A stretch of DNA of 64,000 nucleotides from NCBI GenBank assembly GCA_030425705.1, contig JAUHZU010000004.1, forward strand, positions 267,132 through 331,131, given 5' to 3'. This DNA is from Phycisphaerae bacterium. GTDB taxonomy: Bacteria > Planctomycetota > Phycisphaerae > Phycisphaerales > Phycisphaeraceae. The translations under genes were made by a program, and so were the position numbers. Below, one piece after another: positions 16,735 to 34,474 of the stretch; positions within the stretch are counted from its first letter, which is position 1; each line of letters opens with the position of its first letter. The notes under the pieces are model-generated. The model saw only the letters and a program-made list of their open reading frames with translations. It was not told the origin of the DNA and ran no database searches.

Positions 16735-17085
16735 ATGGCGAACGACGACTGCATCTCGAACATTGATCCGCAGGGCAGCGCGGTGATCGCCCGGCTGAAC
16801 GGGTCGCTCACCGTGGCGAACGCGCCGGAGCTGCGGCAGGGCCTGCTCGCGGCGCTGAAGCAGCACAAGCCCAAGACCCTCGCGCTGAACCTGATGGACG
16901 TGGACTTCGTGGACTCCAGCGCGCTGGGCGTCTTCGTCGAGGTCCGCCGGCAGGTCGCGGGCGACGGCGGGACGCTGGCGCTGACCAACCTCAACGACGA
17001 CATCCGCGGCCTGATGCGGATCATGAACCTCGACGCGGTCTTCAGCTTCTTGGACGATGTCTCGGAAGTCGCGACCGGCGCGTAG
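16735..17085 (+). CDS. STAS-domain protein (MlaB-like accessory / anti-sigma-factor-antagonist fold)
   Basis: 116 aa; the SpoIIAA-like STAS pattern (VIARLNGSLTVANAPELRQGL ... LNLMDVDFVDSSALGVFVEVRRQV) is present. It lies directly upstream of the MlaE-like permease. Confidence 0.7.
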   Translation: MANDDCISNIDPQGSAVIARLNGSLTVANAPELRQGLLAALKQHKPKTLALNLMDVDFVDSSALGVFVEVRRQVAGDGGTLALTNLNDDIRGLMRIMNLDAVFSFLDDVSEVATGA

Positions 17086-19206: not shown

Positions 19207-20544
19207 ATGACCCCATCCAAGTACGCCTTCCAGGCCGGGCTGTTCATCCTCATCGCGATCGGCGCGACCATCGCGATCATCGCGCGCGTCTCCGACTCGG
19301 GCATGCTCAGCAACGCACACACCTACACCGCGACCTTCGCGCCCGGCCAGGACATCTCCGGCCTCGCGGTCGGCTCGGAGGTACGGCTATTGGGCGTCAA
19401 GGTCGGGCGCATCACCGCGATCGAGGTCCACACCGACGACAACTCCGACGCCCACGTCCACGTCACCTTCGAGGTGCCCGATGACGTCCGATTCCGCGAG
19501 CCCAACCCGTTCCTCACGGGCATCCAGCAGTCCCCGCTGCGCACGTCCAGCACCGACATCGCCTTCGGCACGACCGCGGCCCGCGTCGAGGCACAGACCA
19601 GCTTCACCGGCGGGGCCTGGCTCAACATCCTCAGCTTGGGCGAGGGCCTGCCGCTGCCCGAGGGCTCGAGCGTCGCCGCACGCTCGGTCAACCTCAACGC
19701 GATGGTCGACGAGGTCCGCGCCGAGCTGACCACGACCCTCGCGTCGGTCCGCGGCGAGATCGCGGCCGTCGGCGATGAGATCACCCAGACCAGCGACGCC
19801 TTCGAGCAGACCGCCGCCGCCTTCGAAGACACCGCCAACGAGGCCACCGCGCTCATCAACGAGATCGAGCAGGAGATCGACCCGGCCATCGCGCGCTACA
19901 ACGCCTTCATGGATGAGGCGATCGGCGTCGCCGAGGAGGTCAACGCGGTGTTCGGCGACAGCGGCGAAGACATCCGCACCACCCTCGCCAACCTCAGCAG
20001 CACGACCACGACCTTCGACCAGCGCCTGCCGGGCATGCTCGACGAGGTCGACGCGGCGCTCGCGAGCATCAACACCCTGGCCGACGACCTGGGCGGCTTC
20101 GTCGACCGCGCGGAGGCGAGCGTGGACAGCATCGACGCCCTGCTCGCCGAGGCCGGCGGGCTGACCCGCGAGCTGCGCGCCACGCTGGGCGATAACCGCG
20201 TCGAGATCGACCGCATGGTCACCAACGCCCGCCGGACGGTCGTCGAGCTGCGCGGGCTGATGGAAGACCTCCGCGCCAACCCGTCGCGCCTCGTCTGGCC
20301 GCCGGACGAACGCGACCTGGCCAACCTGGAGCTCTACGCCGTGGCGCGCCAGTACGCCAACGCGGCCGAGGACCTGCAGGCCGCCGTGCAGATGCTGCGT
20401 GACGCGACGGTCGTTTCCGGGGGCGGCCCGTCGGATGACCCGGCCAACGCGGAGCGCCTCGAACAGATGCGCGAGCACCTCATGGAGCAGTTCGAGTACT
20501 TCGACGAGCTGCAACGCGAGCTGTGGGAGCGGTACGAGCGGTAA
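19207..20544 (+). CDS. mlaD: MCE-domain protein (MlaD-like) with long C-terminal coiled-coil
   Basis: N-terminal TM anchor; MCE domain (ATFAPGQDISGLAVGSEVRLLGVKVGRITAIEV); an extended helical C-terminus, typical of non-proteobacterial MCE proteins. Confidence 0.75.
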   Translation: MTPSKYAFQAGLFILIAIGATIAIIARVSDSGMLSNAHTYTATFAPGQDISGLAVGSEVRLLGVKVGRITAIEVHTDDNSDAHVHVTFEVPDDVRFREPNPFLTGIQQSPLRTSSTDIAFGTTAARVEAQTSFTGGAWLNILSLGEGLPLPEGSSVAARSVNLNAMVDEVRAELTTTLASVRGEIAAVGDEITQTSDAFEQTAAAFEDTANEATALINEIEQEIDPAIARYNAFMDEAIGVAEEVNAVFGDSGEDIRTTLANLSSTTTTFDQRLPGMLDEVDAALASINTLADDLGGFVDRAEASVDSIDALLAEAGGLTRELRATLGDNRVEIDRMVTNARRTVVELRGLMEDLRANPSRLVWPPDERDLANLELYAVARQYANAAEDLQAAVQMLRDATVVSGGGPSDDPANAERLEQMREHLMEQFEYFDELQRELWERYER

Positions 20545-20571: not shown

Positions 20572-20988
20572 GTGATTATGGTTAGTGTGCTTGTGCCATT
20601 GAGCAATGACGAAGCTATCTGCATTGAAGGAACTCTGTGCGAACTTCGCGAGTTCCATGACGAAATCAAAAAATTTATCAAGTCGGACACAGCGTCGCTA
20701 AAGACTAAAGCTCGTTTGGTTTCTTCACCTAGCCCGTATGAACGATCAATGTCTCGGATCGAGATCAACAAGAACGGAGGGAAGATAGGATTCTCGGTAA
20801 AAGGCGATACGCTTCAGATATCTGGTGACAACACAAGGCTGGTATTGTTCGCAGAAAATCTGCCTTACGATCTGAACGAAGGTCTCAATCACTATCACTG
20901 TCACTTCGATCGAATCGGCCACGAAGACCATTTTGTAGAAGACTCCCGCGACACGATACTAGCAATGAGCCACAGACCCAAGAGCTAG
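20572..20988 (+). CDS. Hypothetical small protein (ORFan, lower GC)
   Basis: 138-aa ORF in AT-richer DNA. Its end converges on, and overlaps by 4 nt, the AAA ATPase gene. Confidence 0.4.
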   Translation: MIMVSVLVPLSNDEAICIEGTLCELREFHDEIKKFIKSDTASLKTKARLVSSPSPYERSMSRIEINKNGGKIGFSVKGDTLQISGDNTRLVLFAENLPYDLNEGLNHYHCHFDRIGHEDHFVEDSRDTILAMSHRPKS

Positions 20989-22913
20989 ACACCCCCGCGC
21001 TCCAACGCCGCCAGCTCCTCAAACCAAGCCTGCCGCTGCGCCTCGTCGATCTCCGGGTCGGGCAGGAGCGACCGCCGCGTGCAGTTCACCAGCGCCTGCA
21101 GCGTCTGGTACCGCCTCGCCGTGCCGATGTCGGCGGGGAGCTGGTCGTGCACGGCCGACTCGACATCTTCCATCGACATCGTGCCGTCGTTGAGAGAGCG
21201 CATCGCCTTGAGCTGCGAGCGCAGCGCCGCATAGGCGGCCGACGAGTATCCGGTCGTCAGCTCCATCATCGCCGCGACGTGCTCGGCCGTGGGCTCGAGC
21301 TTCACCCCCCCCAGCACCCACTGCGCGAACGCCCGGTGGTCCTCGCTGCCCGGCTCCACATCCAGCACCGGGATGATCAGGTCGCCCACCCGCCCAGGCC
21401 GGCGGATGTCGGGGCTCAGCCGCTCGATCCGCGCGGTCATCAGCAGCCAGATGACCCGGCCGCGGAGCTTGGGGTCGCTCATCATCGCCTGGATCTTGCC
21501 GGTCAGCCGACGCTCGGTCTCGTGCGCGTTCGCGCCGACCCCGCCGAACTGCGTGTCTGCCTCATCCACAAACAGGATCACCTTGCCCAGCGCTTCGAGC
21601 ACCCGCCGGAGCTTCTCGAACACGACATCGGTCTGACCGAAATACTGGCTGCGGATGTTCTTCAGGACCAGCACGGGCAGCCCGAGCGAGCCGGCCAACG
21701 CCTCGAAGATAAACGTCTTGCCCGCGCCGATGGGCCCGGCGATCGCCGCGCCAGGGAGGGCTTCGTCTCCCGTCGCCCGGATCCGGGGGATCATCTCGTC
21801 CCGCAGGAAATCCTTGAGCCGCGTGTAGCCGACCACGTCATCGAGCGTGTGCTCGGGCTTGCTGAACTCGACGACGTCCTCACCGAGCTGGCCGACGATG
21901 TACCGCTCGACCTGCGCGATCACGCCCGGAGCGGTCACCGGCTCGCCGGCGTAGGCCGAGTGGATCAGCAGTTGCCGCAGCGCGTGGATCGACAGCCCCG
22001 CGGTGAGGTCGGCGAGCTTGTCGCGCGACAGGGTGGCACCGCTAGCGGGCCCGTGGGCATCCCCCAAGACAGGCACGCCCTTGCCCTGCTTCTCCTGGTG
22101 CGCACAGAACCAGTCGATGTAGTGCCGACGCTCGCCCGCGTCCGGCGACGCGACCTCGACCGACAGCACCTGCGGCAGCCCGGCTACACGCGGGTGCACC
22201 GCGCTGCGCGACTCGGTCAGCATCAGCAGCGTGTCCTCGCCGTCGATAAACGCCGGGTCGCTCAGCCAGTCCTCGAGGATCGCGACGCGGTGCCGGTCGG
22301 CCGAACCGAGCTGGCTTACCCCACCGCCCCCGCCCGTCGGTAGCAGCATGTCGGCCGCCTCGATCAGGATGATCAGCCGGAGGTCCTTGTTGTCTGGCGC
22401 GTACCGCCGCTGATGCCGGGCGCAGAGCGTGAGCTGACGCAGCAGTTCCAGCGCCGCCGTCGGCCGGCCGGTCGCCTCGCCGATGCGCTGGTCGAAGGCC
22501 TGTTCGAGCTGCTGCTTCTGCTTGCCCGCGTCCGGGTCGGTCAGGGCCTTGAGCGTGAAGTGGTCCGGCGAGAGCCCGGTCTTCCACTGGATCCACGCGT
22601 CGCGCAGCCGCCGCCGGTCGTCCGGGTCGACGCAGCGGATCGGCCCGTTCAGCTCGTAGACCAGCAGGACCACGCCGGGGATGTCGCACTGCCGGCAGAG
22701 GTACGGCATGAGCGGGAGGTACTCCCCCGCGAGCGCGTCCTGTACGGCGTTGCCTTGGTCCTGCGACTCGTCGAGCTTCGCGGCCTTGTCGCCCACGAAG
22801 AACAGGTCGTGCACCTCCCCCGCGACCATGACCGCGCGCGACTGCCCGCTGTTCACGATCCGTGCGATCCGGCTGAAGAAGGCGTACTTGGGGGGTGGGG
22901 TCTTCACGAACAT
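20985..22913 (-). CDS. Classic-clade AAA ATPase (Vps4/FtsH/CDC48-type AAA module) with ~350-aa N-terminal domain of unknown function; last gene of the PspA/flotillin operon
   Basis: Walker A GPIGAGKTF, Walker B ILFVDEAD, and a second region of homology with arginine fingers (TARIERLSPDIRRPGRVGD). Confidence 0.8.
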   Translation of the reverse strand: MFVKTPPPKYAFFSRIARIVNSGQSRAVMVAGEVHDLFFVGDKAAKLDESQDQGNAVQDALAGEYLPLMPYLCRQCDIPGVVLLVYELNGPIRCVDPDDRRRLRDAWIQWKTGLSPDHFTLKALTDPDAGKQKQQLEQAFDQRIGEATGRPTAALELLRQLTLCARHQRRYAPDNKDLRLIILIEAADMLLPTGGGGGVSQLGSADRHRVAILEDWLSDPAFIDGEDTLLMLTESRSAVHPRVAGLPQVLSVEVASPDAGERRHYIDWFCAHQEKQGKGVPVLGDAHGPASGATLSRDKLADLTAGLSIHALRQLLIHSAYAGEPVTAPGVIAQVERYIVGQLGEDVVEFSKPEHTLDDVVGYTRLKDFLRDEMIPRIRATGDEALPGAAIAGPIGAGKTFIFEALAGSLGLPVLVLKNIRSQYFGQTDVVFEKLRRVLEALGKVILFVDEADTQFGGVGANAHETERRLTGKIQAMMSDPKLRGRVIWLLMTARIERLSPDIRRPGRVGDLIIPVLDVEPGSEDHRAFAQWVLGGVKLEPTAEHVAAMMELTTGYSSAAYAALRSQLKAMRSLNDGTMSMEDVESAVHDQLPADIGTARRYQTLQALVNCTRRSLLPDPEIDEAQRQAWFEELAALERGGV

Positions 22914-23014
22914 GCCTCACGCAAAGACGCAAAGGCGCAAAGCTGCGGCGCGAAGACCAGGGGTGTGCCTGTTTCTCTTTGCGTCATTGCGCCGTTACGT
23001 GAGTTTCAGAAACA

Positions 23015-23848
23015 TCACTCCGGCAGCTTCGTCTCGCCCTCGCGCTCCATGCCGCCGCCGGTGTCGCCGCCCTCGTCGACCTGCTCGGCCAGGCCGATCA
23101 ACTGGTCGAACTCGCTGGTCGCCACGTTCTTCGTCGCGTAGTCCAGGAACTCGGCCTCCTGCACCTTCGTGTCGGTGCCGGCCAGCTCCTTGCTGACCTT
23201 GGCCTTCGCCTTCATCTCCTCGCGAAGCTGGCGCATGTCGCTCAGCTCCTTGCTCGTCCGGTCGGTGCTGATGCCCGCGAGCATGTCGTTGAGCTCGCGT
23301 TCTTCCTTCGCGGTGATGACCTCGGCGACGGTCGTCGCGGCCTCCTCACGCAGCGAATCGATCTCTCGGAGCATCTGCTGGAGCTGGACCTTGTGGCCGG
23401 TGATGTTGCCGTCCATCTCGCGGACCTCGGCCTCCAGCTCGGCGATGCGCGCGGTCTTCTCGTTGACCTTCGCGCTGAAGTCGTTGAAGGCGATCATGCA
23501 CTTCTGGTAGTCCTCGCCCTGCTTGATCTGCTCGACGGTCGCGCCGTTGGCCTTCATCTCCTGCGCGACGGTGCGGGCCTTCGCGGCCGCGCCTTCCTTG
23601 AGCTGCTCCAGCCGGTTCACCTCGTCGGTGAGGGCCTTGATCTTGGACATCTTCGCCTCGTGCTGGACGATGAGGCGGGCGATCGCGTCCTTGTACTGGT
23701 GCACGCTCTTGCGTTTGTCCTCGATGACCGAGTCGAAGGTCGCCTGGATCACGTGCGGGCTGGTGGAGATCGCGCGGCGGGCGGCGTCGATCCGCCCCGT
23801 GAAGAGGTAACCGATCGCACGGAAGTAACGGCCGACGGCTTTGAACAT
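23015..23848 (-). CDS. pspA: PspA/IM30/Vipp1-family protein (bacterial ESCRT-III superfamily)
   Basis: ~277 aa, almost entirely heptad coiled-coil with a PspA-like amphipathic N-terminus (MFKAVGRYFRAIGYLFTGRIDAARRAI...). GGAG RBS upstream. The ORF is open to 23872. Confidence 0.7.
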   Translation of the reverse strand: MFKAVGRYFRAIGYLFTGRIDAARRAISTSPHVIQATFDSVIEDKRKSVHQYKDAIARLIVQHEAKMSKIKALTDEVNRLEQLKEGAAAKARTVAQEMKANGATVEQIKQGEDYQKCMIAFNDFSAKVNEKTARIAELEAEVREMDGNITGHKVQLQQMLREIDSLREEAATTVAEVITAKEERELNDMLAGISTDRTSKELSDMRQLREEMKAKAKVSKELAGTDTKVQEAEFLDYATKNVATSEFDQLIGLAEQVDEGGDTGGGMEREGETKLPE

Positions 23849-23934
23849 GGTGGGCTCCCTGGGGAGGTGCACGGGTGGCGGGTGGGGATTGGCTAGTCGT
23901 GGGTCAACGGCATTCTAGTGGTATCGGCGATCCG

Positions 23935-24933
23935 CTACGGCTCGCGCTGTTTCTCGGGGTCCGCGGACGGGGGGGCGGCGTCCCGGCCGGTGTCGGCCTG
24001 CTGCGCGGCGTAGTGGAGAAACTCCTGCTCGTCGTAGCCGGACTGGTCGACCTTGTCGATCGCGCGCTGGCAGCGTTCGAGCAGGTCGAACACGGCCCGC
24101 TCGAGGTCGGCCGCGCCGCCCGACGTGCCCGCCCCGCCGACGGCCGAGCCGACCTCGCCCTCGAGGCGGGCCTGCTTGGCGAGGGCCTGGTCGGTGGCCT
24201 TCAGGCAGCGGTCGATGATCTCGGGGTAGCTCTGGAGCAGGGCCTGGCGGCGCTGCTGGAGCTGGACGGCGTAGCCCGCCTGGTCGCCGAGCCGGCCGGA
24301 CCACTCCGCGAGCTGGCGTTCGGTGGTGACCAGCTCGAGCACCGAACGCTCCATCAGCCGGTGCGATTCGCGGATCGAGTCGAGCAGCACGCCGGAGAAC
24401 GGCCGGTCGTCGCGCGACAGCTCATCGAGCATGTGCTTCATGTGCGCGAGCATGGACAACGCCTCGCGGACGCTGTGCTGGCGCATGTCGTTGGGCGTGA
24501 GCACGTCGGGCTTGCCGAGCCGCTCGGAGGCCTCTTTGAATGCGCGTTCCATGCGGCGCTGATCGGGCAGCTTGCCGGCATCGACCAGCGCGAGGATACC
24601 GGCCCATACCGCCAGCAGCGCGAAGGGCGCGAGCGCGAGCATCGTCGCAGTGTTCATGCCGGCCTGCGCGACCGAACCGAGCGACTCGATCAGCCCCGAC
24701 AGCGCCCCCGCCGCCCAGCCGCCCGCGGCGAAGAGCCCGGCGGTGACCCAGAACGGCAGGCCGAAGACCGTGAGCTTGCCGACCAGCCGCCACGGCCGGA
24801 GGAACTTGCGCAGTCGGGCGAAGCGTGGCCCGGGCTCGCGCACCTCGTGCAGGGGCGGCGCGGGGGTGGGCGGCGGGATCCGCCGGTCGCCTTGCCGGAG
24901 CAGGTAGGTCAGCTTGGGCTGGTCGGGAGGCAT
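23935..24933 (-). CDS. Membrane protein (2–3 N-terminal TM helices + cytoplasmic helical domain); putative PspA-associated membrane partner
   Basis: TM segments LTVFGLPFWVTAGLFAAGGWAAGALSGL and MLALAPFALLAVWAGILALV, followed by a ~200-aa helical region. Its position is between the giant AAA+ protein and pspA. Confidence 0.5.
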   Translation of the reverse strand: MPPDQPKLTYLLRQGDRRIPPPTPAPPLHEVREPGPRFARLRKFLRPWRLVGKLTVFGLPFWVTAGLFAAGGWAAGALSGLIESLGSVAQAGMNTATMLALAPFALLAVWAGILALVDAGKLPDQRRMERAFKEASERLGKPDVLTPNDMRQHSVREALSMLAHMKHMLDELSRDDRPFSGVLLDSIRESHRLMERSVLELVTTERQLAEWSGRLGDQAGYAVQLQQRRQALLQSYPEIIDRCLKATDQALAKQARLEGEVGSAVGGAGTSGGAADLERAVFDLLERCQRAIDKVDQSGYDEQEFLHYAAQQADTGRDAAPPSADPEKQREP

Positions 24934-24989
24934 CGGGCTCCATTGTCGGGCGCGGCCGGCCCCACGCCAAGCGCGGGCCGGGCGGCCGG

Positions 24990-27900
24990 TCAGGCATCGA
25001 CCTCGTCGTCATCGACGATCTCGGCCTCGGACCCCCCGGCCGGGCCGTGCTGTTCGAGCCGGTCGATCATGGTGTCGTACTTCTCGAGGATCGTCTCGAC
25101 CTTGGTGTGCAGGGACTTGAGCTGGTCGTCCTGGTCGGCGGTGATTCGGGTGAGCGGTTCGAGCCAGCCCTTCATGAGGTTGAACTGCTCCTTCATCACA
25201 TAGAGGAAGGTCGCGGGGATCTTGTTGACGACGCGGATCTCCTGGGAGACCGGCGCGGGCGCAGATGGATCATCGGCTAGCCGCCGCGTCACACGCGGCG
25301 GGGCGCTGTCGGCGGGCATCTCCATCTCTTCGCTGCGCTCGGGAGCCGGCTTGGTTTGCGTCGGCGTGACCGCCGCAACACCAGCCGGGAGCTTGCCAAG
25401 CTGGTCGACCAGGGCGTGGATCGCGTCGAGCGTGGCAGGGTCGAGCCGGGCTTCGACCGGGGCCGGTGGATCGCTCTTCTTCGCGGCGGGTTTGGCTTTC
25501 GCGGGTTTCGCGGCCTTGGCGAGTTGGGACGCGCCGTGGTCGAGCGCCTCGCGGATCGCGTCCAGCCGGTCGCCCAGCGTGCCGACCTGCGCGAGGACGG
25601 GGCCGAGCTGCTCGCTGAGGTCGGGCTTGTCGTTGCCCTCGGTCTCGGCCTGGCCGTTGCGCTCCTGCTGCGCGGCGCGCTGCGCTTCGGCGAGCTGACC
25701 GATCGCGCCGCCGATCGACTCGCGCATCGCGCCGAGCCCCTGGTTGAACCCGGCGAGCTGGCTGACCACCGCCGCGGCTGTGTCGCCCCCCATCGCCGCG
25801 ACCGCGTTGTTGCGAACGAACGCCTCCTTGATCGCGGACCAGCGCGCCTCCTCCTCCGGCGTGATGATCCCGATCATCTGCTTGAACTTCAGCAGGTTCG
25901 CCTCGGCCCCGGTGGTCAGGGTCTGCGCGTCCTGCTCGTAGGTCGCGACGACCAGCTCCATCAGCTCGGCGTCGTTCATCACCGGCACGATCTTCTCGGC
26001 GATGCGGTTCATGTTCCGGTACGAGCCCTGGAGCTGGAACGGCGGCTCGGTGCGGTACGCGTCCTCCTGCCCGGCCGAGGCGATGTACTGCAGGTTCACC
26101 TTCAGGATCACGTCGCGCACGGCCATGAGCTTGCGCATGACCGCCGACATCTCCTCGACCTCCTGGGCGCTGTAGCTACCCTCGAAGTCGATGCCCTCCC
26201 GGCTGCCGGTCTCGGCGATCTGGATGACGCCGTAGACGTCCTTCTGGCTGCGGGCCGCGAGCGCGTTGAGCGTCGGGTTGCTGGTGAGGCAGTTCTCCAG
26301 GTAGGACATCTTGAACGCGTCGCCGTGCTCGCCGATGATGTCGCCGAGGTTGTAGGTGTCGGCCCGGTTGGCGAGCATGTCGGGGATCTGGAACTTCTCG
26401 CCCGACTCGGTGTACGGGTTGCCGGCCATGACCACGGCGAACTTGCGCCCGCGCAGGTCGTAGGTGCGCGGGCGGCCCTTGTACACGCCTTCGATCCGCC
26501 GCTGCCCGTCGCACAGCGAGATGAACTTCTGCAGCAGCTCGGGGTGGGTGTGCTGGATGTCGTCGAGGTAGAGCAGGACGTTGTCGCCCATCTCAAACGC
26601 GAGGTTGAGCTTCTCGACCTCCTCACGGGCGGAGGCGTTGGGGGCCTCGTCCGGGTCGAGCGAGGTGACGCCGTGCCCGATCGCCGGGCCGTTGATCTTC
26701 ATGAAGACGATGCCCAGTCGGTTGGCGATGTACTCCATGAGCGTGGTCTTGCCGTAGCCCGGCGGGGAGATCAGCAGGAGCAGGCCCATGCGGTCGGTGC
26801 GCTTGCTCTCGCCGGTCGTGCCGATCTGCTTGGCGAGGTTGTCGCCGATGAGCGGGAGGAAGACCGAGTCGATCAGCTTGTTGCGGACGAAGCTGGTGAG
26901 CACCTTGGGCTCGAACTCTTCGAGGCGCATCTCTTCGCGCGCATCCTCAACAAAGCGGCGCTTCATCTCGGTGTACCGCGTAAAGCGCGGGACATCATCG
27001 TCGGCGAAGCGCGACAGTCGGGCGAGGAAGCGGTTGAAGTGCAGGTCGAGCGTGCCGTCGCGGAGGGCCGGATGGCTGCCGATAAGGCCGGTGACCTGCT
27101 CGCGGACCGGCAGGTCCACGGTGCGGGCGGTCTCGTGGTCGGGGTCGAGGAGCACGGCCGCGGCCTCGTCGAGCACGGCGGCGCTGTCGGCGAGGCCGGC
27201 CGGGGCCTGGTCGCTGCCGAGGTAGGCCGAGAGCCAGTCACGGATCAGCGCGAACTGGTCGGGCCGGCGGCCGTCGAGCGCCTCGATGCTCTGGCTGAAC
27301 TTGCGTGCGGCGCGGTGCTGCTTGAGGTGGTCCCGGAACGCGGCGACGAGGGCGGCGGCCTCGGGGCCGATGACGAAGCGTTCGCCACGCATGAGCTGCT
27401 GGCAGAGGTACGCCCCGGCCGGCTCGGCGAGGCCGGGGTCCAGCGCGTCGTGCTGCTCGGCAAAGGCGCGGAGCAGCGCGGCGGCGCGCTGCGCGTAGAG
27501 CTGCTGCTTGGCGGCATCAGGGAACAGCGCGTGGACCTGGCCGAACCCCGCGAGCTGGTTCGCCAGGCGGTGCGCCGCCGCGTGGGCGGGGTCGCGGTCG
27601 TCCGCGTCGGCCGCGGGCGCGGGGACGCCGTGCCAGTAGAGCGACGCGAGGGCGCGGGCGTCGCTCGGGTAGCGGAGCAGGTCGATCCGGCTGCCGATTG
27701 ATGCGAGGGCGCGGAGGACCTTGGCGGCGTCGACATCGTGCACGCCCTTGGTGTAGCCCTCGCTGTAGCGCGGGGCCATGAACCTCTGGACCAGCGCGAG
27801 CAGCGCCCCGTCATCGAGCGCGGCAAGCTCGGCCAGCGGCGGGATGCGGTCGTGATCTGCCTGGGGTTCGATATCGCCAGTTTCAGCCGCGGCTTCATCC

Positions 27901-30797
27901 GCAGATCCGCCTTGCGGCTCACCCGCGGCTTGGGGCAGGCGTGCAGCCACTGCCCGCGCGTGCAGTGCTTCGTTATAGATCAGGTACGCGAGGTACTCGG
28001 CGCGGTAGACGTGATCGTTTTCGGAGACGACTTCCTGGTCCCAGACGGGCCGGGTCGCGTTGAAGGCCGGGTCGTCGATGGGCTCGAAGAACCGCGTGCC
28101 CGCGAGGTGCAGCTGCATCGCGTCATCGCGCAGCACGGTCGTCAGGTCGATGTCCTGCGTGTTGATCGAGAACTTGTGCCGGCCGAAGCGGATGACGTTG
28201 CCGCCCTCCTGCAGCTCCTGCCGGTCCTTGAGCTGGCGGACCGCGTCTTCGCGGATCGTCTTGAGGCGGGACTGGATGTCGTCGACGCGGACGGTATCGT
28301 CGAGCCCGGCCAGCTCATCCACGATGTCGCGGACCTTGTCGATCATCAGGTCCGCGGCGAAGTAGCCGTGGATGGCGTTGATGTCCGTCATCTGCTCGAC
28401 ACGCGACTGCACTCCGCCGAGGATGCGGTCGGCCGCCTGCGCGAGCGCGTTGGCCCGCTTGTTGCGCTTCTCGATGAGCTGGAGCTTGCGGTTCTCAAAC
28501 GCGTTGTAGACCTCGTCGCGCTTCTCGGTCAGCTGCAGGACAAACTCATCAAACTCCGCGAACCGGCCCTCCAGCTCCTCGACCTGCACCATGACCTTCG
28601 TCAGGTACTGCTCGGTCTTCTCGGGCGTGTCGCTGAGGTCCAGGTAGTTCACGACCGACTGGTTCAGCAGCTTCAGCTGGCTGTTGAACTCGGCGACACC
28701 CTCGGTCCGGCCGAGCTGCTGGATGCGGTTCTTCAGCTTGGTGCGCGAGGCGTTGAGCCCGGCGAACACGGCCGAGATCGAGTCGATGATCGCGGTCCGC
28801 TGCGTCGCGTCGTCGATCTTCAGGTTGCCGACGATGTCGATGAGCATCTCCAGCTCGCCGGCCGTCTTGAGGATGTCGTCCTCGAGCGCCTTCGCCTCGG
28901 TGACCTTGGCGACCTGCTCGATCTGCCCCTCGTGCTGATCGGCGGACTCGATGTAGGGGACAAGCGCCTCGTCCTGAAGCAGGTACTCGGCCGTACGCTG
29001 GCTTAGCGCATCGGTCTGCTCGGTGATCCGCTGCTCCAGCTCATCGATGCGCGGCAGGTCGGCGTAGCGCAGTTCCTTGAGCGCGATGACCTTGCCGCGG
29101 ACCGCACGCAGCCCGCCGAGCGATTCGACATACACGTTGATCGAGTCGTAGATCTTCGAGGCGTTGCGGTTGACCAGGTCCTCGGCCTCCTGCGCGACAT
29201 CGTTGGTCTGCTTCGCGGTGGCCTTGCGGACACGGGTGACTTTCTCGAATTCGCCGACCGCGGCCTGCGCCGCGTCGCGGATCGCGCGGATCGTGTCCGC
29301 CAGCCCGTGGCACGCCGAGTCGCCCAGCCAGAAGTAGCTGTCCAGCAGCCCCTCGGCGGTCCGCACGATGTCGAGGTAGAGCTCGGCGTAGGGGTCGTCG
29401 CGCCCGATGAGCCCGAGCACCTCGACGCACTCGGCCATGCCGCGGACGATGTCGCGGTTGCCGATCTTGTAGAGGTGGCTGTCGCTGCGTGTCGGCGGCT
29501 CGTAGTTGGGCCCGACGATCGGGGTCCGCCAGACCTGGACGGCGTGGTGCTTCTGCGGCTCCTCCCCCGCGCGGAAATAGGCCATCGTGCCGTCGGCGAA
29601 GAAGGCGTAGCCGTTGCACACCGTCGGGGTCTCGACGGTCTGCGCGATGAGGTTATACGCCATCAGCGCGTACGCGCCGGTGTCGCGGTTGTAGAAGATG
29701 TAGAGGTAGTCCTCGCCGTTGGGCGCGGGGATGCGCCGCTCGAAGACCATGTTGGCGGGCACGGCCGGGAACGTCTGCAGCTCGCCGGACGCCAGGTAGT
29801 ACCCGTCGCTGAACATGAGGCCGTGGTCGTCGGGCAGCAGGACGCACGCGTGCCCGATCGTGTCGCAGCGGTGGACCTCCTGCAGCTTCGTGTTGAAGAT
29901 GAAGTAGCGGTAGGCGCGTTCCTGGTACGGCCGGATGCGCAGCAGGATCAGGTGGCCTTCGATGACGTATTCGTACTCGGCGTCGTCGAGCGTCTGGTCC
30001 GGGTCCTCGACGGGTTCGGAGTAGATGCCCTGGCCGGACTCGGTGTTGTCCTCAACCTTGATGGTGAGGTCGCCGCCGATGGTCTCGATAAAGACCTCGT
30101 CGTTGATGGAGACGTGCGGGTGCTTGCCGGGGCGCTGCTCGTCACGGCCGGCACGGGTCCAGGTAAAATCGTGCTGGGTGGGGTAGCGGACCTCGTGGTC
30201 GGAGCGGTTGTCGATGTACTGCAGCACGGCGTTGCCGTCCGCGTCCGTGGTGTAGGCCCACTTGAAGGCCTTGAAGTCGTTGACGTCCTGCCCGACACGG
30301 AACTTCATGTACAGGTGCGGGCCCTTGCGGAAGAGCTTGGCGAAAACCGTCTTCTTGTAGAAGCGGTAGAGGTCCTGGAAGTCCTTGCGGAACGCCGCGT
30401 CTTCGATCAGGTCCAGCGGCTCGGCCTCGAACCTGCCCTCTGCAAAGCGGTAGACGGCGAAGACGTCGCTCAGGTCGATCTCGGTCTTGAGCCCGAACTG
30501 CACGTTGTAGCCGACGAGGATGCGGTCGCCCACGGCCGCCATGTCGCGTGGCACGCAGTTGTGGTCGGTGGTCAGCCGGTCGGTGCCGGTGAGCTCGAAC
30601 TCGATGGAACCGAAGACCTGCTTGCGTTCTTCGTTGAGCTGGTCGAGCTGCTTGCGGAGGGTCTTGCCCTGGTCGCGCAGGCGGTTGCGGATGATGTCGT
30701 AGGTGCCCTGGTCGAGCTGCTCCCCCGCGGGGTGGCCCCCGGAGGATTGCGCCTTTGCTCCATCTGCTGGCTGGGTTGTGTCGTTCGTTTCGGCCAT
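24990..30797 (-). CDS. Giant (1935 aa) multidomain AAA+ (AAA_5/MoxR-dynein-like) ATPase with β-rich N-terminal region and long coiled-coil
   Basis: Mid-protein Walker A LLLISPPGYGKTTLMEY, Walker B VLLYLDDIQ, sensor-like AVVMAGNPY; a ~300-aa heptad coiled-coil (residues ~520–860); N-terminal ~500 aa rich in aromatic β-strand patterns. It is an unbroken ORF with strong codon bias. Confidence 0.75.
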   Translation of the reverse strand: MAETNDTTQPADGAKAQSSGGHPAGEQLDQGTYDIIRNRLRDQGKTLRKQLDQLNEERKQVFGSIEFELTGTDRLTTDHNCVPRDMAAVGDRILVGYNVQFGLKTEIDLSDVFAVYRFAEGRFEAEPLDLIEDAAFRKDFQDLYRFYKKTVFAKLFRKGPHLYMKFRVGQDVNDFKAFKWAYTTDADGNAVLQYIDNRSDHEVRYPTQHDFTWTRAGRDEQRPGKHPHVSINDEVFIETIGGDLTIKVEDNTESGQGIYSEPVEDPDQTLDDAEYEYVIEGHLILLRIRPYQERAYRYFIFNTKLQEVHRCDTIGHACVLLPDDHGLMFSDGYYLASGELQTFPAVPANMVFERRIPAPNGEDYLYIFYNRDTGAYALMAYNLIAQTVETPTVCNGYAFFADGTMAYFRAGEEPQKHHAVQVWRTPIVGPNYEPPTRSDSHLYKIGNRDIVRGMAECVEVLGLIGRDDPYAELYLDIVRTAEGLLDSYFWLGDSACHGLADTIRAIRDAAQAAVGEFEKVTRVRKATAKQTNDVAQEAEDLVNRNASKIYDSINVYVESLGGLRAVRGKVIALKELRYADLPRIDELEQRITEQTDALSQRTAEYLLQDEALVPYIESADQHEGQIEQVAKVTEAKALEDDILKTAGELEMLIDIVGNLKIDDATQRTAIIDSISAVFAGLNASRTKLKNRIQQLGRTEGVAEFNSQLKLLNQSVVNYLDLSDTPEKTEQYLTKVMVQVEELEGRFAEFDEFVLQLTEKRDEVYNAFENRKLQLIEKRNKRANALAQAADRILGGVQSRVEQMTDINAIHGYFAADLMIDKVRDIVDELAGLDDTVRVDDIQSRLKTIREDAVRQLKDRQELQEGGNVIRFGRHKFSINTQDIDLTTVLRDDAMQLHLAGTRFFEPIDDPAFNATRPVWDQEVVSENDHVYRAEYLAYLIYNEALHARAVAARLPQAAGEPQGGSADEAAAETGDIEPQADHDRIPPLAELAALDDGALLALVQRFMAPRYSEGYTKGVHDVDAAKVLRALASIGSRIDLLRYPSDARALASLYWHGVPAPAADADDRDPAHAAAHRLANQLAGFGQVHALFPDAAKQQLYAQRAAALLRAFAEQHDALDPGLAEPAGAYLCQQLMRGERFVIGPEAAALVAAFRDHLKQHRAARKFSQSIEALDGRRPDQFALIRDWLSAYLGSDQAPAGLADSAAVLDEAAAVLLDPDHETARTVDLPVREQVTGLIGSHPALRDGTLDLHFNRFLARLSRFADDDVPRFTRYTEMKRRFVEDAREEMRLEEFEPKVLTSFVRNKLIDSVFLPLIGDNLAKQIGTTGESKRTDRMGLLLLISPPGYGKTTLMEYIANRLGIVFMKINGPAIGHGVTSLDPDEAPNASAREEVEKLNLAFEMGDNVLLYLDDIQHTHPELLQKFISLCDGQRRIEGVYKGRPRTYDLRGRKFAVVMAGNPYTESGEKFQIPDMLANRADTYNLGDIIGEHGDAFKMSYLENCLTSNPTLNALAARSQKDVYGVIQIAETGSREGIDFEGSYSAQEVEEMSAVMRKLMAVRDVILKVNLQYIASAGQEDAYRTEPPFQLQGSYRNMNRIAEKIVPVMNDAELMELVVATYEQDAQTLTTGAEANLLKFKQMIGIITPEEEARWSAIKEAFVRNNAVAAMGGDTAAAVVSQLAGFNQGLGAMRESIGGAIGQLAEAQRAAQQERNGQAETEGNDKPDLSEQLGPVLAQVGTLGDRLDAIREALDHGASQLAKAAKPAKAKPAAKKSDPPAPVEARLDPATLDAIHALVDQLGKLPAGVAAVTPTQTKPAPERSEEMEMPADSAPPRVTRRLADDPSAPAPVSQEIRVVNKIPATFLYVMKEQFNLMKGWLEPLTRITADQDDQLKSLHTKVETILEKYDTMIDRLEQHGPAGGSEAEIVDDDEVDA

Positions 30798-30925
30798 ACA
30801 TCAAGCTCAGACAAATGCATCACGGAGGACACGGAGACACCGAGTGCGCGGAGGGGCCGTCGGGCCGGACGGCACGCGCCACTGTGGCCCCCGTGCCTCC
30901 GCGCCCCCTGTGACCGATCACCGCC

Positions 30926-33076
30926 CTACTTCTTCTTGCCGTCCAGCAGCCCGAGCGCCCCGACGGTCTGGTCGGCGACGCCGGCCTGCTTGGCGAGGCC
31001 CAGGAGGTGCTTGAGCTCGCTGGTCAGGTCGCCGTCGTCGCTCTTGGCCAGCAGCTTGGCGATCAACGCGGCGACGGAAAGGTTCTTTGCGTCCTCGCTC
31101 TTGATGCCGAACCGCCCGACGAGCTGCTGCACCTTCCGCTCGAAGTACTCGCCGTCGCCGTTGAAGAACGTGTTCTTGACGTCGGTGAGGGTCTGGGAGC
31201 TGCCGACCATGCGGTCGACACGCTTGCCCTGGGTGATGGAGTTCAGCAGGGTGTCGAAGATCTGCGTCTCGCCGCCGATGATGTCGATGTGGGCGGACTT
31301 GAGCGCCTCGCCCAGGATCTTCGCCTGGTCGGAGACGATGTCGCGCCGAATCTCGATCTCGGCCAGCTCGACCTTGAGGTCCTTCTCGAGCTGGAGCTTG
31401 TACTCCTCGTGCTCCTTGCCGACGCCGTCGAGCTTCTGCATCGCCTCGGCCTTCGCGGCGACGCCCTCGGCCTCGGCGGCGTACTTCTTCTGCATGCCCT
31501 CGGCCTGCGCGTCGTAGCCGGCCCGCTCGGCCTCGGCCTTCGCGAGGCCCTGGGCCTTGACGGCCTCGGCCTTGGCCAGCTCGCCGGCCGCCTCGGCCTC
31601 CGCCTTCTTCTGCACCACGTCCGCCTCGGCGCTGCCGTACTTCTGCACCGCGCCCGCCTTCGCGTCCATCACCTCCGCCTCGGCCAGGCCGATCGCCGCG
31701 TGCTCCGCCTGCGTCGCCTCCGCCAGCTTCATCTTCGCCTGCGCCTCCTTCTCCGCCGCGGCACGCTTCGCCTCGGCCTCGATCAGGATCTCGTTCGCCT
31801 CGAACTCGCTCGCCAGCTTGCTCGCCTCGGCCTTCTTCACTTCCTTGACCTTGTCTTCCTCGGCCTGGGCCTCCGCGGCGGTCACCTGCACCTGCTTCGC
31901 ACGCTTCGCCGTCGCGATCTCGTGCGTGTCCTTGATCTTCTCTTCTTCCTCCACCACCGCACGCTCCACGACCACACGCTCGCGGATCACGTCCTGGATC
32001 TTCTTCTTCTCGACCTCGACGGCCTTGTCCTTCTCGATCTGAGCCAGCGTCACCAGCCGCTCGCGCTCGGTCGCCTCGAGCTGCTGCTCACGCATCACAC
32101 GCTCGGTCTCGACCTTGTCCGCACGCTCGCGGTTCTTCGCCGCGATGATGATCTGACGCTGCTTGTTCTCCTCGGCAACACCCAGCTCCTCCTCCGTCGC
32201 GATGCGGGCCTTCTCCGACTTGTACCGCTCTTCTTCCTCGACCTTCTTCGCCTCGGCTTGCTCGCGGGCACGGACCGAGTCGATCTCGCGCTGCTGCTTC
32301 GCCTCGGCCTCGGCCTGCTGGCGGTCCAGCTCGAGGATCGCCTCGCGCGCCTCGACGTCCTGCTTGCGGATCGTCTTCTCCTTCTCCCGTGCGATGTCGT
32401 TGGCACGCACCGCCTCGGCGGCCGTCAGATCTGTGATCTTCTTAATGCCCTCGGCGTCGAGGATGTTGTTCGGGTCGAGCTGGTTGAGGTCGGTCTGCTC
32501 GAGGTAATCGATCGCCGCGTCGTCGAGTACGTAGCCATTCAGGTCCGTGCCGATGTGGGCGACGATCTCGTCCTTGAACTTGTCACGTTCCGTATACAGA
32601 TCGGTGAAGTCGAACTTCTTACCAACTGTTTTAAGGGCCTCAGAGAACTTCGCGTCGAACAACTCGATCAACGCATCGATATCCGATGCGCGGCGAACAC
32701 CGATGGAGTCGGCGACCTGTAGGACGTCTTTCTCGACGTTATTGACCCGGATAAAGAAGGCGACCTTGATATCCGCCCGGACGTTGTCCTGGCAGATCAG
32801 CCCCTCGCTGCCGTGGCGGTAGATCTCGATCCGGCGGACGGAGATGTCCATGATGTCCACGCGGTGGACGACGGGGAAGACCTTCGTGCCGTTGAACGAG
32901 ACGCTGGGGCCGCCCCACCCGCGACGGACCAGCGCCGTGCCGGGCTCGACCTTGCGGTAGAGCGCCGCGGCGACCATCACCGCACATAGCGCGACGAAGA
33001 AGAGGAAGATCACAATGGCGGTAACGGGCAAGACCCAGCTCGCCAGCGCGACGGTGTTGATGGCCTGTATCTGCAT
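30926..33076 (-). CDS. Flotillin-like SPFH/Band-7 protein (FloT/YqiK type) with long E/A/K-rich coiled-coil
   Basis: N-terminal TM hairpin, SPFH domain (VFPVVHRVDIMDISVRRIEIYRHGSEGLICQDNVRADIKVAFFIRV), then ~350 aa of EA-rich repeats. Confidence 0.85.
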   Translation of the reverse strand: MQIQAINTVALASWVLPVTAIVIFLFFVALCAVMVAAALYRKVEPGTALVRRGWGGPSVSFNGTKVFPVVHRVDIMDISVRRIEIYRHGSEGLICQDNVRADIKVAFFIRVNNVEKDVLQVADSIGVRRASDIDALIELFDAKFSEALKTVGKKFDFTDLYTERDKFKDEIVAHIGTDLNGYVLDDAAIDYLEQTDLNQLDPNNILDAEGIKKITDLTAAEAVRANDIAREKEKTIRKQDVEAREAILELDRQQAEAEAKQQREIDSVRAREQAEAKKVEEEERYKSEKARIATEEELGVAEENKQRQIIIAAKNRERADKVETERVMREQQLEATERERLVTLAQIEKDKAVEVEKKKIQDVIRERVVVERAVVEEEEKIKDTHEIATAKRAKQVQVTAAEAQAEEDKVKEVKKAEASKLASEFEANEILIEAEAKRAAAEKEAQAKMKLAEATQAEHAAIGLAEAEVMDAKAGAVQKYGSAEADVVQKKAEAEAAGELAKAEAVKAQGLAKAEAERAGYDAQAEGMQKKYAAEAEGVAAKAEAMQKLDGVGKEHEEYKLQLEKDLKVELAEIEIRRDIVSDQAKILGEALKSAHIDIIGGETQIFDTLLNSITQGKRVDRMVGSSQTLTDVKNTFFNGDGEYFERKVQQLVGRFGIKSEDAKNLSVAALIAKLLAKSDDGDLTSELKHLLGLAKQAGVADQTVGALGLLDGKKK

Positions 33077-33091
33077 CGGTCTACTCCTTGG

Positions 33092-33724
33092 TTAGAAACC
33101 CCGGACGGTATAAACGCCCCGCTCGTCACGCTCGGTGACGACGACCACTTCGTCGCCTCGGTTCAGGGGCGTGCTGCCCGCGGGCAGCCGGACGCTGATC
33201 CGCAGGGGTGACCCATCGGTCTCGATCTCGGCCTGGCCGTGGCGGTCGTCCAGGGTCGCGGAAATGACTTTGCATCGCTGCCCCATGACCTCGACTTTGC
33301 CCGCGTTGGCGTCGCGTTCAAGCTGCTCGAACAGCCGACGCAGCGGGTGGGTCAAGAACTTAGTCAACAGCAGCCCGAGGATGACCATCGGGACCAGGGC
33401 GAGCAGGTTGACCATCAGCGACCAGTCGCCGAACCACATCTTCGTCAGCACGCCGATGAGCCACAGGAACGCGACGAACACGGACAGCAGGATCATGATC
33501 GGCACTTCGCCGACGTTGAGGAATTTCAGAAACGACGTGAGGCCGTGGCCGCCCCCGCCGCCGACATCCGCGTCGGCGTCGGTATCGACATCCAGGTCAA
33601 GGTCGAGGAAGTCGAGGTCGGCCATCCCGACCATGACGACCAGCCAATACACAATCAGGCACCCGATCAGCACGGTGAGTGCGAAGTTGACGGGGGTCAT
33701 GATGGCGTCGATGAACTCGGTCAT
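33092..33724 (-). CDS. NfeD-like (YqiJ/YuaF-type) membrane protein with C-terminal OB-fold
   Basis: N-terminal TM segments, an acidic DLD repeat, and the C-terminal NfeD β-barrel (GQRCKVISATLDDRHGQAEIETDGSPLRISVRLP ... GDEVVVVTERDERGVYTVRGF). The canonical nfeD–flotillin pairing is present. The ORF is open to 33859. Confidence 0.8.
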   Translation of the reverse strand: MTEFIDAIMTPVNFALTVLIGCLIVYWLVVMVGMADLDFLDLDLDVDTDADADVGGGGGHGLTSFLKFLNVGEVPIMILLSVFVAFLWLIGVLTKMWFGDWSLMVNLLALVPMVILGLLLTKFLTHPLRRLFEQLERDANAGKVEVMGQRCKVISATLDDRHGQAEIETDGSPLRISVRLPAGSTPLNRGDEVVVVTERDERGVYTVRGF

Positions 33725-33952
33725 GATGGGTCGTGCGTAGGGACAGCGGGTCCCGGGTGGTCGCCGGGCGGGGGCGTACGTCCCTGCGGGTCGTGTTGGC
33801 CGGTCCCTCGGCCCCCCTGCCCGGGGGTGATCCGGGCCGCCTTCTGGCGTAGACAGCATAACGGCCGGCGGGTTCCCACGTCTGGGAATCGCCGGCCGCC
33901 GCGTCGCGGGGCCGTGGTGTGAAACTGGGGCGTCTGGACGCGCACCACGCCA

Positions 33953-33990
33953 CGAAAAACGCGGCGGCCGGTGAGGGCCGCCGCGTCTCT
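33953..33990 (-). terminator. Rho-independent terminator (minus strand) downstream of the 34016..34396 gene, insulating it from the nfeD operon
   Basis: gcggcggccgg-tgagg-gccgccgc stem-loop, followed on the minus strand by gttttt. Confidence 0.6.
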
Positions 33991-34015
33991 AGAGTCGCGT
34001 TCTCGGGGGTCGGGC

Positions 34016-34396
34016 TTAGCCGGCCTTGCCGAGGATCATCTCCATCTCTTCACCGTCTTCGACGACGACGATGTGGAGCTTGCCGACCGCGTCGATCGAC
34101 CAGTTGCCGGTGCTCTCCGGCTCGTTTTCGGGGTAGAAGGAGATGGTGCCGTCTTCGCTGGCCTCGTAGCGGACTTCTTCGGTCTGCTCCTGGCCGTTGA
34201 AGGTGACCTTCATGGAGATGGTGTCTTCGTCGACGAAGGTCAGGACCATGGAGACGCCGGGCGGCGGGGTCTCGCCGTTGAACGATTCGATGTTCCACGA
34301 GCCCATGAGGGCGGCGACCTCGGCGGCGTAGGCGGTGGTCGTGGCGGTCATGGCCATCAGCAGGGCCAACGAGAGGGCGGCGATACGCTTCATCAC
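34016..34396 (-). CDS. Small secreted protein (signal peptide; lipocalin-like β-rich), hypothetical
   Basis: MMKRIAALSLALLMAMTATTTAYAA signal peptide; 126 aa. Confidence 0.55.
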   Translation of the reverse strand: MMKRIAALSLALLMAMTATTTAYAAEVAALMGSWNIESFNGETPPPGVSMVLTFVDEDTISMKVTFNGQEQTEEVRYEASEDGTISFYPENEPESTGNWSIDAVGKLHIVVVEDGEEMEMILGKAG

Positions 34397-34474
34397 AATG
34401 CTCCAGGGTTGGGGTTAGGCGGTTCGGGGTAGGGCCTCATGATACGAGGCGGGGCTGAATCGGGTTCGCACAGT

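Follow-up and report, generated by a model that had tools for sequence, protein, structure and literature searches.

A composite operon of a Phycisphaerae bacterium that joins a YqiJ-flotillin-DUF3686 module to a divergent PspA-like protein and a tandem AAA ATPase

A 64,000-nucleotide stretch of a Phycisphaerae bacterium (contig JAUHZU010000004.1, positions 267,132 to 331,131 of the forward strand; hereafter, the window) contains six adjacent genes at 20985-33724 on the minus strand, which raise the question of whether their products form one system and what this system could do at the cell envelope. A preliminary description, made from the sequence alone, had presented the block as a candidate novel membrane-remodelling machine, in which a flotillin with its NfeD-type partner, a PspA protein related to ESCRT-III, a Vps4-type ATPase, and an unprecedented giant ATPase would act together; that interpretation is partly supported. 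The analysis gives good support to a composite envelope-maintenance operon made of two joined modules: module A, with a widespread YqiJ-YqiK flotillin pair and a giant protein of the DUF3686 family, and module B, with a PspA-like protein and a tandem AAA ATPase. We lean, if only slightly, towards the whole explanation in which this composite operon works by recycling a membrane-associated polymer. The six open reading frames (ORFs) are co-directional and closely spaced, as first described, with intergenic gaps of 15, 128, 56, 86, and 101 bp in gene order, and are numbered in the order of transcription, from gene 1 (33724) to gene 6 (20985):

33092-33724, minus strand: gene 1, YqiJ/YuaF (NfeD-type) inner-membrane protein, 210 aa
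30926-33076, minus strand: gene 2, YqiK-type flotillin, 716 aa
24990-30797, minus strand: gene 3, giant soluble AAA+ protein (DUF3686), 1935 aa
23935-24933, minus strand: gene 4, clade-restricted transmembrane (TM)/helical protein, 332 aa
23015-23848, minus strand: gene 5, divergent PspA/IM30 protein (PspA-like), 277 aa
20985-22913, minus strand: gene 6, tandem AAA ATPase, 642 aa

The start of gene 1, an ATG at 33724, agrees with the homologues, and the longer ORF to 33859 is not conserved in the homologue alignment; gene 5 starts at Met9 of a 285-aa ORF (23848), which gives 277 aa, the homologues being 273-279 aa long. No minus-strand terminator-like site was found inside 20985-33724, the sole one lying at 20565-20551, downstream of gene 6. 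The GC content of the window is 63-73%, and the long ORFs that run over the block on the opposite strand are the usual artefacts of high GC.

Gene 5 is predicted to code for a divergent PspA/IM30 protein of the ESCRT-III superfamily, an assignment already made in the preliminary description and one that survives both profile and fold tests. Searches with the single sequence (Pfam, NCBIfam, and phmmer against PDB) returned coiled-coil noise only (Rad50, SMC, sigma-1), a shallow profile of 31 sequences reached Vipp1 at no better than E=0.03, and hhalign comparisons of the family with E. coli PspA and YjfJ, each taken as one sequence, were uninformative (<2% probability). A deep profile of 133 sequences, chosen as representatives at 50% identity, placed Vipp1/PspA chains at the top of the PDB matches (E=2.1e-8 to 2.4e-6), aligned collinearly at 39-96/30-87 and 132-249/98-212 and sharing an ELAG-x-D motif. 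Moreover, PspA_IM30 (PF04012) is the commonest Pfam family among these relatives, matched by 28 of the 133 at E<0.01 (best 3.4e-7), and some homologues are labelled PspA/IM30 by NCBI or JGI. The AlphaFold2 model has a mean predicted local distance difference test score (pLDDT) of 76, exceeding 90 at residues 40-170, and takes the form of a long hairpin of helices (31-100 and 112-223), for which the top four Foldseek matches in PDB are Vipp1 (6zvr/7o3w/8qbw), aligned over ~230 columns. The PspA-like family counts at least 581 representatives at the 50% identity level. Two elements at the ends of the protein are relevant to the proposed function:

23795-23848, minus strand: N-terminal cationic amphipathic helix of gene 5 (residues 1-18), a candidate membrane-binding H0, located by hydrophobic moment
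23018-23158, minus strand: conserved C-terminal tail of gene 5, with EAEFLDYA (231-238), EFDQLIGLA (246-254), and KLPE (274-277), located by family alignments

Specifically, residues 1-18 have a peak hydrophobic moment of 0.59 (mean 0.28) and a net charge of +3, and are helical in the AlphaFold2 model. The tail positions are invariant or nearly so in the family alignment, appear in the 133-sequence consensus, and are present in every genomic context, and the elements that they form are candidate recognition elements for an AAA ATPase.

Gene 6 joins a degenerate N-terminal AAA domain (~1-340, no Walker A) to a classic-clade C-terminal AAA domain (~380-590; Pfam AAA E=2.3e-15). The latter is intact and predicted to be active: its Walker A GPIGAGKT (21714-21737), pore loop QYFG (21636-21647), Walker B ILFVDEAD (21555-21578), and the RRPGR of the second region of homology (SRH; within 21381-21434) are all invariant in 28 homologues, and the SRH sequence quoted at the outset, ARIERLSPDIRRPGRVGD, is present at residues 494-511. 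In trimmed alignments, the N-terminal half matches the protein's own C-terminal AAA domain along 197 columns (E=4e-4), from a degenerate Walker B region through the sensor region to the lid helices, and has no P-loop. The classic clade and the intact SRH thus hold for this protein, whereas the Vps4 type that had been ascribed to it does not. No MIT domain was found in Pfam or PDB searches, and Vps4 is absent among the 60 best PDB sequences for the gene 6 profile, in which VAT, AFG2, Cdc48, p97, and NSF D1 domains are nearest (E=4e-29 to 5e-22); likewise, the NCBIfam match to CDC48 stands at 1.1e-15 and that to CdvC at 3.2e-4. By sequence, gene 6 is nearest to the D1 of Cdc48/VAT/p97 and is not of the Vps4 type. 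Its family has at least 1445 clusters, with Verrucomicrobiota, Hydrogenedentota, Planctomycetota, and Sumerlaeota named among others.

The linkage of these genes was surveyed in 80 loci with a gene 5 relative, with one genome per species and all six proteins mapped onto the loci:

17 of 80 loci: giant, PspA-like, and AAA genes in the window order, preceded by YqiJ and flotillin genes if the contig extends that far
2 of 80 loci: giant and PspA-like genes without the AAA gene
13 of 80 loci: PspA-like gene with the AAA gene directly downstream, no giant
29 of 80 loci: PspA-like gene with the AAA gene ~1-6 kb downstream, no giant
19 of 80 loci: neither giant nor AAA gene; 11 of them have a downstream flank of at least 8 kb and no AAA match in the locus

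An AAA gene lies 3' of the PspA-like gene in 59 of the 80 loci, and 42 of these have no flotillin or giant. The conservation of the gene neighbourhood, proposed at the outset as a check, was thus found for the giant-PspA-like-AAA order. The nearest loci come from metagenome-assembled genomes (MAGs) of Phycisphaeraceae/Phycisphaerales, with PspA-like identities of 92-95%, in keeping with the planctomycete host that had been guessed from the gene content; the order of the full operon is kept in 17 loci at PspA-like identities down to 65% and giant identities down to 57%. All 19 giant-linked loci belong to Phycisphaeraceae-type MAGs, and their PspA-like proteins form one nested clade in a neighbour-joining tree. 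The PspA-like/AAA family extends much further, through Planctomycetota, Verrucomicrobiota, Hydrogenedentota, Sumerlaeia, and others, including a Nitrospiraceae MAG, and the pair is not universal in the loci of Planctomycetota. In the wider family, the two genes are also found in a transporter-type operon of 8-9 genes, in the order NMT1-like, VWA, OmpA, 2TM-helical, PspA-like, substrate-binding protein, permease, ABC ATPase, and tandem AAA (L001, 4472-15577; L090, 1-9821; L091, 1-9824; from a planctomycete, a Deltaproteobacteria-labelled MAG, and a Sumerlaeia MAG), apparently the ancestral setting of the pair. Because the giant-linked PspA-like proteins are a single nested clade and the pair occurs elsewhere in the transporter-type operon, the operon of the window is best read as a one-off fusion in an ancestor of the Phycisphaeraceae, in which the PspA-like/AAA pair was placed at the 3' end of a YqiJ-flotillin-DUF3686 operon.

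The spacing between the PspA-like and AAA genes varies among the composite loci. In some relatives, as in L003 (10895-11158), an 87-aa gene (Pfam DUF7710) lies between them, and gaps of 370-530 bp in L008, L011, L013, L014, and L016 might hold a DUF7710 gene; the corresponding gap in the window is 101 bp long and has none.

Turning to module A, the family assignments of genes 1 and 2 made in the preliminary description are borne out by comparison with the E. coli YqiJ-YqiK pair. Gene 1 is a member of the YqiJ family by its sequence: YqiJ_N is matched over the cutoff (Pfam E=4.3e-9) and is found in 14 of 14 homologues as well, and E. coli YqiJ is matched by BLASTP (E=4e-6) and by hhalign (E=9e-6), the latter alignment reaching the C-terminal domain. 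Three TM segments are predicted (14-32, 76-94, and 103-121), followed by a soluble, putatively OB-like C-terminal domain. Gene 2 alone has no Pfam or NCBIfam match at E<0.1 (Band_7, PF01145, and Flot, PF15975, included) and no PDB sequence match, nor does its 15-sequence profile match any PDB entry. The same profile aligns to E. coli YqiK by hhalign with 99.9% probability (E=1.5e-31, 431 columns, 30% identity) across the TM, SPFH, and coiled-coil parts, and it is on this comparison that the classification of gene 2 as a YqiK-type flotillin rests. The predicted architecture comprises an N-terminal TM segment (21-39), an SPFH-like domain, a coiled coil of ~330 aa rich in E, A, and K, and a C-terminal domain. 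The order of the two genes is the same as in E. coli yqiJ-yqiK, with a 15-bp gap here. The C-terminus of gene 2 (30926-31060, minus strand; ELKHLLGLAKQAG) loosely resembles the EFDQLIGLAEQ element of the PspA-like protein (23087-23113, minus strand), a resemblance that may be due to chance.

The giant encoded by gene 3 had been called unprecedented, which does not hold: by its sequence it is a full-length member of the DUF3686 family (PF12458), matched at E=3.6e-186 over residues 47-489 and profile positions 2-448 of 448, with DUF7902 (PF25472; E=1.6e-26) at residues 610-693, and the homologues in L002-L004 show the same Pfam set. The protein consists, in order, of DUF3686, DUF7902, a coiled-coil/helical region, an AAA+ module (~1300-1640), variable linkers, and a C-terminal helix. 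The AAA+ module is the best conserved part over 17 homologues, being ~90% identical to the window sequence; matches above cutoff around residues 1340-1465 are to Pfam AAA (E=1.5e-6, 29.2 bits) and AAA_5 (E=1.2e-5, 25.8 bits), and the solved structure nearest to the P-loop region is p97 D1 (E ~2e-5). Walker A is SPPGYGKTT at 26742-26768 on the minus strand, and a conserved stretch, MAGNPYTESG…IPDMLANRAD, resembles the MoxR pattern. The AAA and AAA_5 scores are nonetheless close to each other, and do not single out the MoxR/dynein type suggested for the giant in the preliminary description. The Ala/Pro/Lys-rich linkers (~950-1000 and ~1700-1850) that flank the helical/AAA+ core are poorly conserved and partly rich in indels, and the C-terminal helix that follows the second of them (1851-1895; VNKIPATFLYVMKEQFNLMKGWLEPLTRI) is strongly conserved; from this pattern, the helix could be a tethered interaction element.

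The locus as a whole had been put forward as a novel machine, and here the claim is overstated, since both of its associations have been described by comparative genomics (Ravi et al. 2024, mSystems; PMC11237479): that of YqiJ, flotillin, a giant AAA+ protein, and PspA and, separately, that of PspA with dyads of an inactive and an active AAA domain. The triad operon of Dokdonia donghaensis (ANH61663.1; PMC11237479) resembles the window in its 3TM YqiJ-type protein, its flotillin with TM, SPFH, and coiled-coil parts, its DUF3686 giant (β-propeller, coiled coil, and AAA+), and the presence of a PspA gene in the operon. It differs in that its PspA is of the YjfJ type and lies upstream, after a CesT/Tir (YjfI) chaperone, in line with the link reported between a YjfJ-type PspA with a CesT/Tir partner and the YqiJ-flotillin-giant triad in Bacteroidetes (PMC11237479), whereas in the window the PspA-like gene is found 3' of the giant, without a CesT/Tir neighbour, and comes with its own AAA ATPase. 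Moreover, the PspA-like protein belongs to another subfamily, since hhalign finds it specifically similar neither to YjfJ nor to PspA of E. coli. The Clostridium dyad of the same study (AEY64321.1/AEY64320.1) has in common with module B a PspA gene and a two-domain AAA protein with a degenerate N-terminal copy; the dyad of the window is, unlike it, fused behind a flotillin and a giant, and family identity between the two is suggested by architecture and context only. The Handelsmanbacteria operon around OGG56892.1 (PMC11237479), with OmpA, an ABC transporter, and a TM-Snf7 protein, recalls the operons with OmpA, substrate-binding, permease, ABC ATPase, and TM-helical genes in which the wider family of the window is found.

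Better-known bacterial pairs cover parts of the locus. In the ydjFGHI operon of Bacillus subtilis, an SPFH protein, YdjI, is likewise linked to a PspA homologue and belongs to a different SPFH subfamily; in E. coli, yqiJK are the same pair in the same order as genes 1-2, with no adjoining PspA gene; neither operon has an AAA ATPase or a giant. The supplement of PMC11237479 holds no Phycisphaerae example and no combined operon, and literature searches found no paper on DUF3686 and no experimental work on either association. What is new, then, is that Phycisphaeraceae join both modules in one operon, with a distinct PspA subfamily and with a further gene, gene 4, that shares a tail motif with the PspA-like protein.

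Gene 4 has a Pro-rich N-terminus, a TM hairpin (with a strong TM segment at 99-117), a helical cytoplasmic domain of ~200 aa, and, at the C-terminus, a motif matching that of the PspA-like family:

24007-24030, minus strand: EQEFLHYA motif of gene 4 (residues 302-309)

The gene is found in the same slot in L007, L008, L011, L013, and L016, with 41-90% identity, and its relatives make up just 11 clusters among 5.8 billion proteins; one of the carriers, Phycisphaeraceae bacterium D3-23, has a genome listed without a MAG label. No Pfam, NCBIfam, or PADLOC match was found for gene 4, its profile retrieved nothing under E=0.06 from PDB, and the AlphaFold2 model built from 12 sequences has a mean pLDDT of 47. 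The C-terminal DEQEFLHYA is invariant among close homologues, with Leu for Phe in more distant ones. In the six-frame ORFs of the 80 loci (1.23 million residues), there are 75 instances of the pattern EF[LIM]x[YF]A, of which 73 fall in PspA-like proteins and two in gene 4 homologues, with none elsewhere. In agreement with this, the stretch that hhalign aligns between gene 4 and the PspA-like family is exactly the tail motif (local E=0.05), and the significance is confined to it, a near-global comparison giving P=0.004 and 8.6% probability. The 2TM-helical partner in the transporter-type operon occupies the same position as gene 4, directly upstream of the PspA-like gene, and has the same architecture; the hhalign comparison between gene 4 and this 2TM-helical family (E=0.023) is not significant, and the family itself has no match to Snf7 or to other Pfam entries. 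From the shared sequence we infer that ExEFLxYA is a common docking peptide, whose candidate reader, given its pairing with the PspA-like protein throughout the family, is the AAA ATPase.

These elements can be arranged in a mechanism for the composite operon. YqiJ and the flotillin would build a scaffold or cage of the SPFH type on the cytoplasmic face of the inner membrane, and the soluble giant, with its propeller, coiled coil, and AAA+ ring, would assemble, tether, or remodel this scaffold with ATP. The PspA-like protein may bind the stressed membrane via its N-terminal amphipathic helix and, as other proteins of the ESCRT-III superfamily do, polymerise at or near the flotillin platform. 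The tandem AAA protein would form a hexamer like those of Cdc48 and NSF, grip the acidic/aromatic tail of the PspA-like protein (EAEFLxYA, EFDxLIGLA, and KLPE-COOH), and thread its subunits through the aromatic pore loop, so that the polymer is disassembled and recycled, in a putative functional parallel to the action of Vps4 on ESCRT-III with an ATPase from another AAA lineage. Gene 4, with its ExEFLxYA, would probably be a membrane-anchored adaptor or a competitor for the same partner. A functional pairing of the PspA-like and AAA proteins is proposed because the AAA gene follows the PspA-like gene across phyla. Such a mechanism would match known behaviour of relatives: the membrane localisation of PspA in B. 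subtilis depends on the SPFH protein YdjI, SPFH proteins form closed cages (PMC10936438, PMC7619361), and the C-terminal tail of Vipp1 is the binding site of its disassembly chaperone, Hsp70 (PMC13051332).

Several observations weigh against the recycling mechanism or against the assignments that it uses. On the side of the polymer-forming protein, gene 5 of the window, searched alone, falls under the Pfam threshold for PspA_IM30 (E=0.14, 12.2 bits with the cutoff at 33.9), and the Foldseek figures are modest (E=1e-3 to 7e-3, TM-scores 0.29-0.55). On the side of the giant, Walker B is LLYLDDIQH (26550-26576, minus strand), with Asp-Asp and not Asp-Glu, kept across 17 homologues, which from the sequence may point to slow ATP hydrolysis or to a nucleotide-dependent switch, and the role given to this protein is purely our inference. 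With regard to the joining of the modules, most genomes with the PspA-like family hold the two apart, and two complete Phycisphaeraceae chromosomes (OY763327.1, with L024 and L037; OY771506.1, with L025 and L030) carry two PspA-like paralogues each, of which one lies behind YqiJ-flotillin-giant without an AAA gene and the other in a transporter-type operon, with the AAA gene ~3 kb downstream. Lastly, the OmpA/VWA/ABC context of the wider family hints at a function in solute transport or in the cell wall beyond polymer recycling.

Two other explanations of the locus are serious. According to the first, which we consider unlikely, the operon would serve the extraction and quality control of membrane proteins: the flotillin cage would enclose clients in the way that HflK/C encloses FtsH, the AAA protein, and perhaps the giant, would extract or unfold them, and the PspA-like protein would be an adaptor or a membrane sealer instead of the substrate. 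The likeness of gene 6 to the Cdc48/VAT/p97 segregases and unfoldases and its canonical aromatic pore loop are what such a function would use, and the literature describes SPFH cages that enclose compartments of the membrane (PMC10936438). However, the constant partner of the AAA protein is the PspA-like protein, in the 59 loci counted above and with neither flotillin nor giant in 42 of them, and a Pfam scan of the operon reveals no protease domain or gene.

The second, given an equally small chance, is that the two modules are functionally independent and came to be adjacent by chance in one lineage. Their separation in most genomes with the PspA-like family is expected if so, as are the loss of the AAA gene from the composite operon in two genomes and the variable presence of gene 4. 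The order has nevertheless been held across 19 species-level loci with 57-92% protein identity and short gaps, in Bacteroidetes the same triad is independently associated with a PspA lineage unrelated to this one (PMC11237479), and in B. subtilis an SPFH protein recruits PspA (PMC10936438, PMC7619361). The association of PspA with flotillins has thus recurred independently, which argues for a functional link between the modules of the composite operon.

How close this operon comes to the ESCRT-III/Vps4 (CdvB/CdvC) system is a further question. Alike are the presence of a protein of a polymer-forming superfamily next to a classic-clade AAA protein and the C-terminal motifs as a possible handle, similar to the MIT-interacting motif. 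In contrast, gene 6 has no MIT domain, carries a degenerate D1-like AAA domain, and is nearer to the D1 of Cdc48/VAT/p97, and the locus has no homologues of ESCRT-I/II or of CdvA. By these defining features, the locus lies outside the Vps4/ESCRT system, though it may work like one. A bolder reading, which we hold doubtful, makes the PspA-like/tandem AAA pair an independently evolved bacterial counterpart of ESCRT-III/Vps4 that drives membrane repair or scission through the active, tail-directed disassembly of a PspA-type polymer by a Cdc48-type hexamer and is wired to the flotillin cage and the giant via a tail-mimicking adaptor. If true, it would amount to a multi-ATPase membrane-remodelling apparatus for which no equivalent has been characterised, and which may help to shape the envelope or endomembranes of planctomycetes that lack FtsZ.

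In one locus of a planctomycete, a group not known to possess FtsZ, an ESCRT-III superfamily protein is encoded together with an AAA ATPase of its own and a membrane anchor, which also invites the idea of a Cdv/ESCRT-like scission machine for division or endomembrane shaping. This is improbable, given that the pair occurs equally in Verrucomicrobiota, Hydrogenedentota, Sumerlaeia, and a Nitrospiraceae MAG, that not all planctomycete loci have it, that the composite operon is confined to one family, and that no division genes were seen among the neighbours of the block in the window.

The recycling of a PspA-like polymer by the tandem AAA protein bears on a gap in current knowledge. Reviews of 2024-2026 still hold that bacteria appear to have no Vps4-like partner for ESCRT-III (PMC10936438, PMC7619361), which leaves the question of how the polymers of PspA and Vipp1 are regulated (PMC10936438, PMC7619361, PMC13051332). 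The PspA-like family addresses this gap with a partner AAA protein that, judging from its motifs, would be a dedicated unfoldase with intact catalytic residues, and the Phycisphaeraceae version ties the pair to a flotillin, itself an organiser of membranes, and a DUF3686 giant; the locus thereby makes the ATP-driven turnover of bacterial ESCRT-III-like polymers, and its coupling to flotillins, directly testable.

The operon has housekeeping genes as neighbours. On its 5' side and on the same strand, beyond an intergenic region of ~750 bp (33725-34474), lie a SIS-domain gene (34475-35494, minus strand) and a phosphofructokinase gene; no sigma-70-like promoter was found between 20 and 35 kb in the window, this region included, and the Rfam and tRNA scans found nothing in the window, 33725-34474 being likewise without an Rfam match. 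Signs of mobile elements were looked for in the window and not found. That the operon is an island for abortive infection or defence against phages, with AAA+ ATPases at its core, is very improbable: many large operons with several ATPases and no assigned function do turn out to be defence systems, and the P-loop region of the AAA domain has a weak PADLOC match to IetA (E=1.5e-6), but this and the matches to JetC/LmuB (~3e-4, on the coiled coil) are generic P-loop and coiled-coil matches without a system-level match, the neighbours are housekeeping genes (SIS, phosphofructokinase, and Mla in the window; ribosomal proteins in L003), and the absence of mobile elements, tRNA, and Rfam features is accompanied by stable vertical conservation of the locus, the PspA-like proteins of the composite operons being a single clade.

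On the 3' side, the operon converges with a complete plus-strand operon of the Mla type:

16735-17085, plus strand: STAS/MlaB-like protein
17141-17953, plus strand: MlaE
18364-19176, plus strand: ABC ATPase
19207-20544, plus strand: MlaD

The adjoining Mla lipid-transport operon noted in the preliminary description is thus real; its inclusion in the same system was considered and rejected, as it lies on the opposite, convergent strand and its synteny with gene 6 is kept only in the closest relatives (L007, L011, and L013). The MlaD protein (19207-20544) is 445 aa long and carries a long helical C-terminal extension.

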